Below are positions 12,214 to 59,389 of a stretch of DNA of 64,000 nucleotides, piece by piece (the stretch's first letter is position 1; every line of letters begins with the position of its first letter). The translations under genes and the position numbers were made by a program. The stretch is from an uncultured Candidatus Melainabacteria bacterium. Its GTDB lineage: Bacteria; Cyanobacteriota; Vampirovibrionia; Gastranaerophilales; Gastranaerophilaceae. The stretch spans positions 5,618-69,617 of the forward strand of contig CATNBA010000004.1 in the NCBI GenBank assembly GCA_950096985.1, in the 5' to 3' direction. The notes beneath the pieces were generated by a model that was given only the letters and a program-made list of their open reading frames with translations, was not told the DNA's origin and ran no database searches.

Positions 12214-13464
12214 TTGAAACATTCAAAACTTACAGCCCTGATATTTATAGCATTGGTTTTAGGTGTTATAGTAGGACACTTTGCCCCTGATTTTGCAGTA
12301 AAAATGAAACCTTTTGCGGTTATTTTTCTGCGAATGGTAAAAATGATTATTGCCCCTTTGCTTTTTGCAACTCTTGTTGTTGGGATTGCAGGACATGGTG
12401 ATGGTAAAAGATTAGGTAAAATCGGGCTTAAAACAGTTATTTATTTTGAAATTGTAACAACCCTCGCTCTTATAATCGGGCTTACTATGGCGAATATATT
12501 CAAGCCGGGTGTAGGGTTTGTTACGGGTAATACACCGCATGCATTGCATATGCAGGAAGCCGGATTGATGGCAGGAGCACAGGCTCATACTTCAATCAGC
12601 GAAATGGTTACGAGTATTTTTCCGACAAGTATTATTGATGCAATGGCACAGGGAAATTTATTGCAGATTGTTGTGTTTTCAATATTCTTTGCACTTGCAA
12701 TTATTGCTGTAGGTAAAAAAGCGCAGCCTGTTGTCGATATTTTAAACTCTGTATCACAGATAATGTTTAAGTTTACCGAATATGTAATGTATTTTGCGCC
12801 ATTAGGGATTTTTGGAGCAATTGCATCAACAATCGGAGCTAATGGATTATCTGTTTTAAAGAGTTATTTTAAAATAATCGGAGCATTATATGTGGCGCTT
12901 GCAGTATTTGTATTTCTTGTTTTGATTATTGCATGTAAAATTGTGAGAATTTCATTCAGAAGTCTTTTGAAGGCTTTACAAGAACCTGCTTTGCTGGCTT
13001 TTACAACTGCAAGTTCAGAGGCAGCTTTCCCGAAAGCTATGGATATTATGGAACGATTTGGAGTTCCGAAAAATATCGTAGGTTTTGTAATGCCGACAGG
13101 ATACACATTTAATCTTGACGGCAGTACGTTATACCTTGCAATGGCTGTTATTTTTTCATCACAGATTGTAGGTATAAATCTTGACTTAAATCAGCAATTA
13201 ATTATAATGTTGGCATTAATGCTTACAAGCAAAGGTGTTGCAGGAGTTCCGAGAGTTTCACTTATCGTACTTGCCGGAACTCTGGCAAGTTTTAATATTC
13301 CTATTTTAGGTGTTGCAATACTTTTGGGTATTGACCAAATCCTTGATATGGGAAGAACTACGGTAAATTTAATCGGAAACTGTGTTGCAACTGTTGTAAT
13401 TGCACGTTGGGAAAGAGTTTTTGATTATGAGAAAATGAGAGAATTTGTTAATAAAGAAAAATAA
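12214..13464 (+). CDS. Dicarboxylate/amino acid:cation symporter (DAACS; GltP/DctA-like)
   Basis: AFTTASSEAAFP, PTGYTFNLDGSTLY, LTSKGVAGVP, DMGRT motifs. Confidence 0.92.
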   Translation: MKHSKLTALIFIALVLGVIVGHFAPDFAVKMKPFAVIFLRMVKMIIAPLLFATLVVGIAGHGDGKRLGKIGLKTVIYFEIVTTLALIIGLTMANIFKPGVGFVTGNTPHALHMQEAGLMAGAQAHTSISEMVTSIFPTSIIDAMAQGNLLQIVVFSIFFALAIIAVGKKAQPVVDILNSVSQIMFKFTEYVMYFAPLGIFGAIASTIGANGLSVLKSYFKIIGALYVALAVFVFLVLIIACKIVRISFRSLLKALQEPALLAFTTASSEAAFPKAMDIMERFGVPKNIVGFVMPTGYTFNLDGSTLYLAMAVIFSSQIVGINLDLNQQLIIMLALMLTSKGVAGVPRVSLIVLAGTLASFNIPILGVAILLGIDQILDMGRTTVNLIGNCVATVVIARWERVFDYEKMREFVNKEK

Positions 13465-30584: not shown

Positions 30585-30613
30585 TTGCAACTAATTTCAT
30601 TTTGTGTTATTAT
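30585..30613 (+). promoter_or_regulatory. Sigma70-type promoter of the small peptide transcript
   Basis: TTGCAA (30585-30590), 17 nt, TATTAT (30608-30613); predicted start near GGGTAAGC at 30620. Confidence 0.55.
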
Positions 30614-30701
30614 AATTGTGGGTAAGCCCTATTATCATATCCATATCTTAGCGGTACGAACTTGAAATTTGTTAAACGGTAAGAGAAAGGAGGTGATAGA
30701 G

Positions 30702-30773
30702 ATGATTATCGCAGCAAGCGAAAAAGCACTAATTATAATTTTAATAATCATAATAGTGCTTAGTTTCATCTAA
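30702..30773 (+). CDS. Candidate type I toxin: 23 aa hydrophobic peptide MIIAASEKALIIILIIIIVLSFI
   Basis: AGAAAGGAGGTGAT SD, ATG 30702, TAA 30771; paralogous architecture at 59046-59120. Confidence 0.7.
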   Translation: MIIAASEKALIIILIIIIVLSFI

Positions 30774-30813
30774 TTCGGGCTTTTAAAGTGCGGACGGCAA
30801 TCCGCACGCCCAT
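30721..30813 (-). ncRNA. Candidate cis-antisense antitoxin sRNA (about 90 nt)
   Basis: Downstream of the TTGACA-N17-AATAAT promoter; ends in stem AAGCACTA/TAGTGCTT plus T-run; also contains the GTGCGGA/TCCGCAC hairpin. Confidence 0.6.
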
Positions 30814-30819
30814 ATTTAT

Positions 30820-30848
30820 ATTATTTCTGATTTTGCATATTTTGTCAA
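30820..30848 (-). promoter_or_regulatory. Antisense promoter TTGACA-N17-AATAAT
   Basis: Plus-strand TGTCAA 30843-30848 and ATTATT 30820-30825; identical hexamers and spacing at 58959-58987. Confidence 0.65.
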
Positions 30849-58958: not shown

Positions 58959-58987
58959 TTGACAAAAAAGAGAAAATCGTAAATAAT
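58959..58987 (+). promoter_or_regulatory. Antisense promoter TTGACA-N17-AATAAT
   Basis: TTGACA 58959-58964, AATAAT 58982-58987. Confidence 0.65.
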
Positions 58988-58993
58988 GTGAAT

Positions 58994-59101
58994 ATAGGGA
59001 AAGAACCCTAAGAGGGTCTAGTCTCTTAAGGTTCTTCATAACTCCCTATTTAAGTAGTTTAGGTGCTATGATTATCATAAAGATAAGCCATAGCGCTTTT
59101 T
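58994..59101 (+). ncRNA. Candidate cis-antisense antitoxin sRNA (about 105 nt)
   Basis: Follows the promoter; long hairpin 58994-59049; ends in GTGCTATG/CATAGCGC stem plus TTTTT (59097-59101). Confidence 0.6.
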
Positions 59102-59120
59102 CTGTAATACAGAATTTCAC
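59046..59120 (-). CDS. Candidate type I toxin: 24 aa peptide MKFCITEKALWLIFMIIIAPKLLK
   Basis: AGAAAGGAGGTGAT SD, GTG 59120, TAG 59046; shares EKAL plus hydrophobic run with 30702-30773. Confidence 0.65.
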   Translation of the reverse strand: MKFCITEKALWLIFMIIIAPKLLK

Positions 59121-59197
59121 TTTTTCATCACCTCCTTTCTGACCAGTTTCTCATAACAAGTGTGTGTCAGCTTTCGGTGAGCGGGAGCTTACCCAAA

Positions 59198-59389
59198 TTA
59201 TTTGCGTTTTTTGAACTCAATATCGTAGCCGAGAATATCGGCTATTTGTTCAACTAATTCATATGTAATTGTTTTATTTCGTAGTTTATTAGATAAATTA
59301 TTTACAGATGAATTTATTTTTTCTGCTAATGCTGTCATTGTAATATTTTCAACTGCTAAAATTGCTTTTATTTTTTCTCTAGCTCCCAT
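59198..59389 (-). CDS. Small Cro/C1-like HTH protein
   Basis: IKAILAVENITMTALAEKINSSVNNLSNKL..ITYELVEQIADILG; similar to 31203-31442. Confidence 0.75.
   Translation of the reverse strand: MGAREKIKAILAVENITMTALAEKINSSVNNLSNKLRNKTITYELVEQIADILGYDIEFKKRK

Follow-up and report, generated by a model that had tools for sequence, protein, structure and literature searches.

A compact module on the minus strand of a 64,000-nucleotide (nt) stretch of Gastranaerophilales DNA (hereafter the window; contig C4, positions 5618–69617) is, judging from its sequence and that of its relatives, probably one copy of a lineage-specific family of cassettes that resemble type I toxin–antitoxin systems. We call it module 2; a second member in the same window is module 1. 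The source assembly comprises 1.65 Mb with 34% G+C. The scaffold of the family consists of a GGG head with a type-specific clamp arm, a leader hairpin containing the Shine-Dalgarno (SD) sequence, an open reading frame (ORF) for a small hydrophobic peptide, a partner arm, a 3′ hairpin, a CCC, and a convergent promoter. We infer selection on both RNA strands and on the peptide, because the relatives show a coding signature, compensatory changes within helices, wobble pairs that favor a particular strand, and conservation of the promoter.

The elements of module 2 that a preliminary description had reported are all present, on the minus strand apart from the antisense promoter, which is on the plus strand (Table 1). 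Within the window, the SD motif AGAAAGGAGGTGA (59140–59128) has only two matches against 0.07 expected, the other being in module 1 at 30684. Two classes of the family differ in their 5′ heads: class A, to which module 1 belongs, begins with GGGTAAGCCC, and class B, the type of module 2, with GGGTAAGCT(T)CC. Module 1 also has a sense promoter (TTGCAA-N17-TATTAT), a 3′ hairpin, a GCCC, and an antisense promoter.

The comparative set contains ∼80 nonidentical copies. Among these we looked for copies lacking an open hydrophobic ORF, the finding that the preliminary description had named as telling against a toxin gene. The ORF is open in all 61 unique copies found by sequence pattern (one start codon was reread by eye) and in 19 of the 20 further copies fetched for this check, that is, in 80 out of 81 full copies. 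The encoded peptide has 21–27 residues forming a single hydrophobic helix, with the consensus M-x-F-[SC]-[IV]-T-E-K-A-L-x-L-I-L-L-I-I-[IL]-[AVT]-L-K-x-x-K. Entropy is 0.45 at second codon positions compared with 0.86 at first and 0.92 at third positions, and T is near-invariant at the second codon positions of the hydrophobic core. The pooled ratio of nonsynonymous to synonymous polymorphism (pN/pS) is 0.54 for the ORF's own frame and rises to 0.78 and 1.64 for the two alternative frames. The product of the family ORF is thus conserved and bears a coding signature; its size, hydrophobicity, and genomic behavior suggest that it may be toxic. The single closed copy, a class B module (L091; G160:C30:449–725), has an in-frame TAG in the hydrophobic core with the RNA elements otherwise intact and is likely an inactivated toxin gene.

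These observations bear on the idea that the family is a noncoding structured repeat, such as a miniature mobile element or a repetitive extragenic palindromic (REP)-like sequence, whose ORF and promoters are chance by-products. The modules do resemble such elements in being multicopy, ∼250 bp long, intergenic, and strongly folded, with a copy number that varies between genomes. However, the module ends show neither terminal inverted repeats nor target duplications, the start codon lies at a proper distance from the SD, and two promoters occur at fixed positions; with the open ORFs and the near-invariant T residues, this leaves the repeat explanation scarcely any credence.

Both RNA strands of module 2 fold far better than shuffled sequences (mRNA, z = −5.8; antisense RNA, −41.8 kcal/mol, z = −5.84). 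We examined three helices across the family, counting pairs on codon-anchored or motif-anchored positions, with 500 partner shuffles as the control. The hairpin directly after the start codon (ORF hairpin 1) is paired in 95% of cells, with compensatory change in two of its five pairs. The long hairpin within the ORF is paired in 85% of cells, with compensatory change in five out of 12 pairs, one of which occurs as G-C (35 copies) or A-T (21 copies). For the class A 3′ hairpin the values are 98% and six out of seven. In none of the three helices was the observed pairing reached by any of the 500 shuffles. The loop of the class A 3′ hairpin is a conserved hexamer on variable stems (CTGCAA in 18, CGGCAA in 15, and CTGGAA in six out of 50 copies), and sense and antisense hairpins may first touch at this hexaloop.

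Where one strand has a G-U wobble, the other has a C-A mismatch, and wobble counts can therefore point to the strand in which a helix functions. In the core of the in-ORF hairpin, 21 wobbles are tolerated by the antisense strand only and one by the sense strand only; the class A 3′ hairpin shows the opposite pattern (22 sense-only, one antisense-only), as does the post-start hairpin (11 and two). The post-start and 3′ hairpins are therefore kept in the mRNA, whereas the in-ORF hairpin is a structure of the antisense RNA, and since it is followed there by UUUUUC, it can be assigned as the antisense terminator. In module 2, this is the inverted repeat AGCGCTATG/CATAGCAC with TTTTT next to it on the plus strand, the TTTTTC of the terminator being the complement of the Glu-Lys codons GAAAAA. 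Double use of the Glu-Lys-Ala-Leu (EKAL) codons, for peptide and antisense terminator, had been proposed from module 2 and is supported in the family by the compensatory changes and the antisense-favoring wobbles. The hairpin in turn constrains the peptide, because Ala/Val/Thr changes at residue 19 covary with synonymous changes in two of the EKAL codons, those for Ala and Leu. Together, the counts imply that both strands would serve as functional RNAs.

The promoter on the opposite strand lies in a region outside every search pattern. We scanned the 55 nt beyond the CCC for TTGACA-N16–18-TATAAT and found a match of at least 10 out of 12 positions in 95% of 78 modules, compared with 1.3% of windows drawn at random from these loci. 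In most modules the −10 element ends 8–9 nt before the GGG. The sequence proposed earlier for module 2, TTGACA-N17-AATAAT, matches the consensus at 11 of 12 positions and sits at this conserved location. Because the motif alone is common (25 matches in the source genome), the weight of the antisense promoter comes from its fixed position in the module. An extended consensus, TTGACAAA...AAATCGTAAATAAT, likewise has 25 sites genome-wide, several of which are module antisense promoters.

The predicted antisense RNA starts just before the GGG and consists of a 5′ stem–loop, a linker, and the terminator hairpin. Because it is encoded on the opposite strand, it would be perfectly complementary to the mRNA over ∼105 nt: to codons 7–24, the stop codon, the 3′ arm, and the 3′ hairpin, but not to the 5′ part. 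The positions of promoter and terminator thus place the antisense RNA on the 3′ side, overlapping a part of the mRNA that includes ORF sequence. Farther along the plus strand (59176–59193), the complement of the head and candidate anti-SD forms a terminator-like hairpin with a T-rich tail, which could stop antisense read-through.

One might suppose from the antisense side of the module that a small RNA acting in trans is the main product and that the ORF transcript is a decoy, a sponge, or incidental. The antisense promoter is indeed the best-conserved promoter of the cassette, and its RNA is strongly structured, with a terminator under selection. Yet the ORF carries the coding signature and a strong, properly spaced SD, most copies have a sense promoter, hairpins specific to the sense strand are conserved, and antisense sequences diverge so widely between types that no common trans target is evident. 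We consider a principal role in trans very improbable, and return to the toxin–antitoxin-like interpretation.

The two ends of the mRNA are predicted to pair with each other. For module 2, the minimum-energy fold of a transcript ending at the CCC contains GGG/CCC (the head GGG with 58997–58999), AGCUCCC/GGGAGUU (the 5′ arm with the arm after the stop codon), and UCACC/GGUGA, which are exactly the pairings that had been described; this clamp is the minimum-energy structure for transcripts ending at the CCC or up to 8 nt past it. In class A, the corresponding pairs are GGGU/GCCC after the 3′ hairpin and AAGCCC/GGGCUU after the stop, with a clamp probability >0.9 in three of the four copies of the source genome. 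The class B partner arm is GGA(A)GUU. With RNAalifold, the clamp is predicted in each class on its own (class A, 50 sequences; class B, 10 sequences), and the 3′ side of the class A clamp, which lies outside the search pattern, is 99.6% complementary.

The arms also show specificity. Mean duplex energies of cognate arms are −10.6 kcal/mol in class A, −9.4 in class B, and −9.2 in a third version, GUUUCC/GGGAAC; noncognate arms average −7.7 within class B and −4.4 to −7.9 across classes, and shuffled arms −3.9. Modules with three other peptide types have different arm sequences and the same fold topology. The covariation of the closing arms that had been noticed between modules 1 and 2 thus extends to the family, in the folds of both classes, in the cognate energies, and in the other types. 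The further suggestion that the GGG after the stop codon could also close the 3′ hairpin, and so act as a switch, is possible.

Table 1. Features of module 2, its paralogue, and neighboring or related loci; positions without a contig name refer to the window
Feature	Position	Strand	Remarks
Module 2	58959–59194	minus	Gastranaerophilales; window is C4:5618–69617
5′ head of mRNA	59183–59194	minus	GGGTAAGCTCCC; begins GGGTAAGC at 59194–59187
Candidate anti-SD	59176–59180	minus	TCACC; predicted partner is GGTGA of the ribosome-binding site
SD region	59127–59140	minus	AGAAAGGAGGTGAT; 6 nt upstream of the GTG start codon
ORF (candidate toxin)	59046–59120	minus	24-residue hydrophobic peptide MKFCITEKALWLIFMIIIAPKLLK; GTG start; stop included
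ORF hairpin 1	59100–59114	minus	TTCTG-TATTA-CAGAA; directly after the start codon
Predicted antisense-RNA terminator	59061–59102	plus	Stem GTGCTATG...CATAGCGC + TTTTTC; inside the ORF
Post-stop arm	59040–59046	minus	GGGAGTT; first G doubles as the final base of the TAG stop
mRNA 3′ hairpin (probable mRNA terminator)	58997–59037	minus	GAAGAACCTTAAGAG...CTCTTAGGGTTCTT + closing TCCC; holds the 3′ side of the GGG/CCC clamp
Antisense promoter	58959–58987	plus	TTGACA-N17-AATAAT; 11/12 match
Predicted antisense RNA	58994–59102	plus	∼105–110 nt; ends placed from promoter and terminator
Module 1 (class A paralogue)	30585–30848	plus	Head GGGTAAGCCC; peptide MIIAASEKALIIILIIIIVLSFI; post-stop GGGCTT
Cro/C1-type helix-turn-helix (HTH) gene	59198–59389	minus	Pfam HTH_26, HTH_3; stop 3 nt before the module head
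Truncated copy	C18:16680–16792	minus	Promoter, head, leader, and first eight codons intact; SD degraded
Other-type module	C4:77153–77385	plus	Outside the window
Other-type module	C3 ∼12250–12400	minus	Outside the window
Other-type modules	Near C1 183445, C1 11626, C3 41581, C13 34709, C32 15093		Outside the window

The preliminary description counted two copies of the module and regarded them as paralogues. Paralogy stands; modules 1 and 2 have their elements in the same order and can be aligned end to end. The count does not: the comparison with genome-wide copies that had been suggested there yielded more of them, with the ORF open in nearly all. BLAST and hidden Markov model (HMM) searches of the source genome find five intact modules of the module 2 peptide type and one truncated module; those beyond modules 1 and 2 are three intact copies on contig C1 and the truncated one on C18, whose sequence is unrelated beyond GAAAAAAC. 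A scan anchored on the convergent promoter finds seven more modules that share the scaffold and encode three other peptide types: one represented by MNRELIKKALLVIELLIRLIITLV and MKLRAIKKALLAIELLIRLILVLIN, one beginning MDKFNISLLLIFMILFVLKNGS..., and one of the form MVxKIxMLLLAxAIAVIA.... In all seven the fold closes the 5′ GGG with the 3′ CCC. The genome thus has at least 13 modules, which encode four types of peptide.

A pattern of head, SD, and GAAAAA matches 56 loci in 185,579 species genomes, nearly all labelled Gastranaerophilales or Melainabacteria. A shorter pattern of head and SD only occurs in 55 out of 401 Gastranaerophilales genomes and in 19 of the 64 genera, compared with two matches for a reversed-pattern control; it is absent from all 93 genomes of the phylum outside this order. 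Since the 5′ head and SD are fixed by the search pattern, their conservation among relatives is not independent evidence, and that of the Glu-Lys codons, which were part of the first pattern, is partly forced. Within the genus of the source genome, presence is patchy (25 out of 37 genomes by BLAST, the source genome included), and tandem arrays occur, for example one with three modules (L051).

Four loci from another family of the order (L099–L102, in G047, G065, and G058) have the scaffold with longer peptides of 34–38 residues, such as MKVKFALSERELLILVIVVLLMISKKDLAEILSLLTSI; their head is GGGTAAGCCC, which two of the four extend by a fourth C. One typical class A module (L004) is on a 10.8-kb contig (CAZTVM010000068.1) in an assembly that bears the label Muribaculaceae; mis-binning of a Melainabacteria contig, not transfer, is the probable cause. 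Scanning viral contigs with the pattern gave three matches, all without a small ORF and attributable to chance, and blastn with modules 1 and 2 found no match in GenBank phages.

An orthologue of module 2 (L035) allows a closer comparison: its flanking genes, for an R3H-domain ATPase and PpdK, have 97% protein identity and the same order. The two modules differ at two positions in the leader up to the SD and at two out of ∼95 in the 3′ untranslated region (UTR) and antisense promoter, compared with nine out of 75 in the ORF, about five times the UTR rate. The stems are kept, with a compensatory swap of CAG/CTG to CTG/CAG in ORF hairpin 1.

This rapid divergence, together with the genomic distribution, is pertinent to what may be the peptide's role. 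It could be a harmless small membrane protein, for instance a regulator or an accessory subunit of a membrane complex, with its synthesis adjusted through mRNA folding and a cis-antisense RNA; the coding signature and the antisense elements would be equally fitting for such a protein, and the peptide matches no known toxin family, Hok/Gef, Fst, Ldr, Ibs, and TisB among them. In Pfam, six peptides have no match at E-values up to 10, the Fst toxin family included; NCBIfam gives only weak TatA-like hydrophobic matches (E = 0.16–1); and in an exact look-up the peptides are absent from the protein collection, where there is only one unnamed 37-residue relative. However, a harmless protein would not readily account for four peptide types in at least 13 modules within 1.65 Mb, tandem arrays, patchy presence within one genus, decayed copies (L091 and the truncated copy on C18), fast peptide change between orthologues, and several stacked layers of repression. 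Because selfish or toxic type I modules typically show these traits, which would be unusual in a small housekeeping protein, we regard a harmless function as unlikely and prefer a toxin–antitoxin-like cassette.

Several observations weigh against this preference or against parts of it. The many compensatory cells in the helices may stem from few evolutionary events. The class A clamp is invariant on both sides, so that its covariation rests on comparison between classes and between types, and with a 16-nt longer tail an alternative fold outcompetes the clamp of module 2. The fast evolution of the peptide could alternatively reflect weak constraint. As for the proposed anti-SD, TCACC is present and pairs with the ribosome-binding site in the predicted fold, as had been described, but the statistical side of that claim holds less well: the SD has a mean predicted paired probability of 0.78, against 0.72 in composition-matched shuffled leaders and 0.63 in ordinary genes of the source genome with the same SD core. 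Occlusion of the SD in the leaders of the family is nevertheless plausible from the folding models. Most other class B copies have ACCTCC at the TCACC position, and the leaders comprise several sequence types that could not be aligned with one another (MAFFT).

Two further points against it concern module 2 itself. Most copies have a sense promoter, TTGAC(T/A)-N17-TATAAT, ∼7–8 nt upstream, but module 2 has no canonical −35/−10 at the usual distance, and neither does its orthologue. Its mRNA may arise by read-through from the HTH gene upstream, an adjacency that the orthologue shares. We considered this gene as a component of the module and rejected it, as its relatives match only six out of 86 loci. 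In the peptide, residue 20 of module 2 is Pro (CCT, 59061–59063), the only instance among 60 aligned peptides, of which 56, as well as the orthologue, have Leu (CTT). The Leu20-to-Pro substitution is derived and falls close to the C terminus of the hydrophobic helix, and with the missing canonical promoter it may mean that this copy is attenuated.

If the preferred interpretation as a toxin–antitoxin-like cassette is correct, an mRNA of ∼200 nt would encode the hydrophobic peptide, and its first 10–12 nt would be clamped both to the segment just past the stop codon and to the CCC after the 3′ hairpin. The clamp would stabilize the leader hairpin that holds the ribosome-binding site, leaving the full-length mRNA translationally silent. 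From the near-consensus convergent promoter just past the CCC, the ∼105-nt antisense RNA would be made in excess, ending at the in-ORF hairpin and U-tract and using the Glu-Lys-Ala-Leu codons for this purpose. It would pair with the last two-thirds of the ORF and the whole 3′ UTR, and either an RNase specific for double strands, such as RNase III, would cut the duplex or translation would be blocked. Were the labile antisense RNA lost, the peptide would be made and would damage the membrane.

A broader proposal, which we offer tentatively and with limited confidence, is that a single RNA scaffold hosts at least four unrelated toxin peptides and merges a Hok/AapA-like lock with a Bacillus-like 3′-overlapping antisense RNA, two arrangements kept apart in the 24 catalogued families. 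Antisense binding would have two effects, targeting the mRNA for cleavage and competing with the lock. Because the antisense terminator is placed within the ORF, the needs of the RNA would dictate (E/K)-K-A-L, the best-conserved motif of the peptide. The cyanobacterial phylum would thereby gain its first type I toxin–antitoxin superfamily, with about one module in every 130 kb.

To our knowledge, type I toxin–antitoxin systems come almost only from cultured Proteobacteria and Bacillota, and a family in uncultured gut Melainabacteria would extend them to a new phylum-level lineage. It would also add unannotated genes to hundreds of assemblies, because protein collections lack the peptides. The more than 80 or so natural variants superimpose a peptide code on two RNA structures of opposite strands, and this set would be useful for studies of overlapping constraints and for tests of cognate versus noncognate antisense specificity.

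We compared the modules with known systems by RNA models and by the literature. Rfam finds only RNase P in the whole window at the gathering score, and permissive scans of both modules and 18 relatives give chance-level matches only, so that none of the known antitoxin RNA families (Sib, Sok, RatA, IstR, RdlD, and others) is matched at its gathering score. Among these, a SIB_RNA match on module 1 reaches 17.4 bits against a threshold of 56 and does not recur in the 18 modules, and we dismissed it as chance. Our literature search found no paper linking type I toxin–antitoxin systems with Gastranaerophilales or Melainabacteria, and the T1TAdb paper, which covers 24 type I families in 218 species, does not mention cyanobacteria (PMC8594479).

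In layout, the modules are closest to systems whose antisense RNA overlaps the mRNA on its 3′ side, an organization described for TxpA/RatA, BsrG/SR4, BsrE/SR5, YonT/SR6, and SprG/SprF (PMC8594479). As in the Bacillus subtilis TxpA/RatA group and Staphylococcus aureus SprG/SprF, the predicted antisense RNA is convergent, extends over the mRNA's 3′ end and some of the ORF, and spares the ribosome-binding site, and the peptide is small and hydrophobic. These families act by RNase III-dependent decay, SR4 additionally changing the structure at the SD. There is no similarity to them in sequence or model, the lineage is Melainabacteria rather than Bacillota, the peptide has 21–27 residues rather than their ∼30–59, and the modules here have a conserved 5′–3′ clamp. 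The likeness to the TxpA/RatA and BsrG/SR4 group is therefore one of layout, not of descent.

The clamp is instead reminiscent of Hok/Sok of plasmid R1 and AapA1/IsoA1 of Helicobacter pylori, where pairing of the 5′ and 3′ ends locks the mRNA with the SD in a helix. In both, 3′ trimming activates the mRNA. Their antisense RNAs lie within the mRNA and target the 5′ initiation region, whereas here the 3′ two-thirds would be covered, and their sequences show no similarity to this family. Control of translation through folding of the toxin mRNA is described for such systems (PMC6733600).

Fst RNA I/RNA II (the par locus of Enterococcus faecalis pAD1) and SprA1/SprA1as share with the modules converging transcripts that overlap at their 3′ ends, a 5′ structure that sequesters the ribosome-binding site (predicted here), and a small membrane peptide. 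In par, the functional pairing involves 5′ direct repeats beyond the overlap, which does not extend into the ORF (PMC8594479); here, the overlap takes in most of the ORF, with the antisense terminator inside it. Ibs/Sib of Escherichia coli are similar in their tiny, extremely hydrophobic peptide, in occurring in multiple and partly tandem copies, and in an antisense RNA that overlaps the ORF, but Sib covers the complete ORF and is contained within the mRNA. What is new in the modules relative to these systems is the combination of layout and lock, their sequences, and their lineage.

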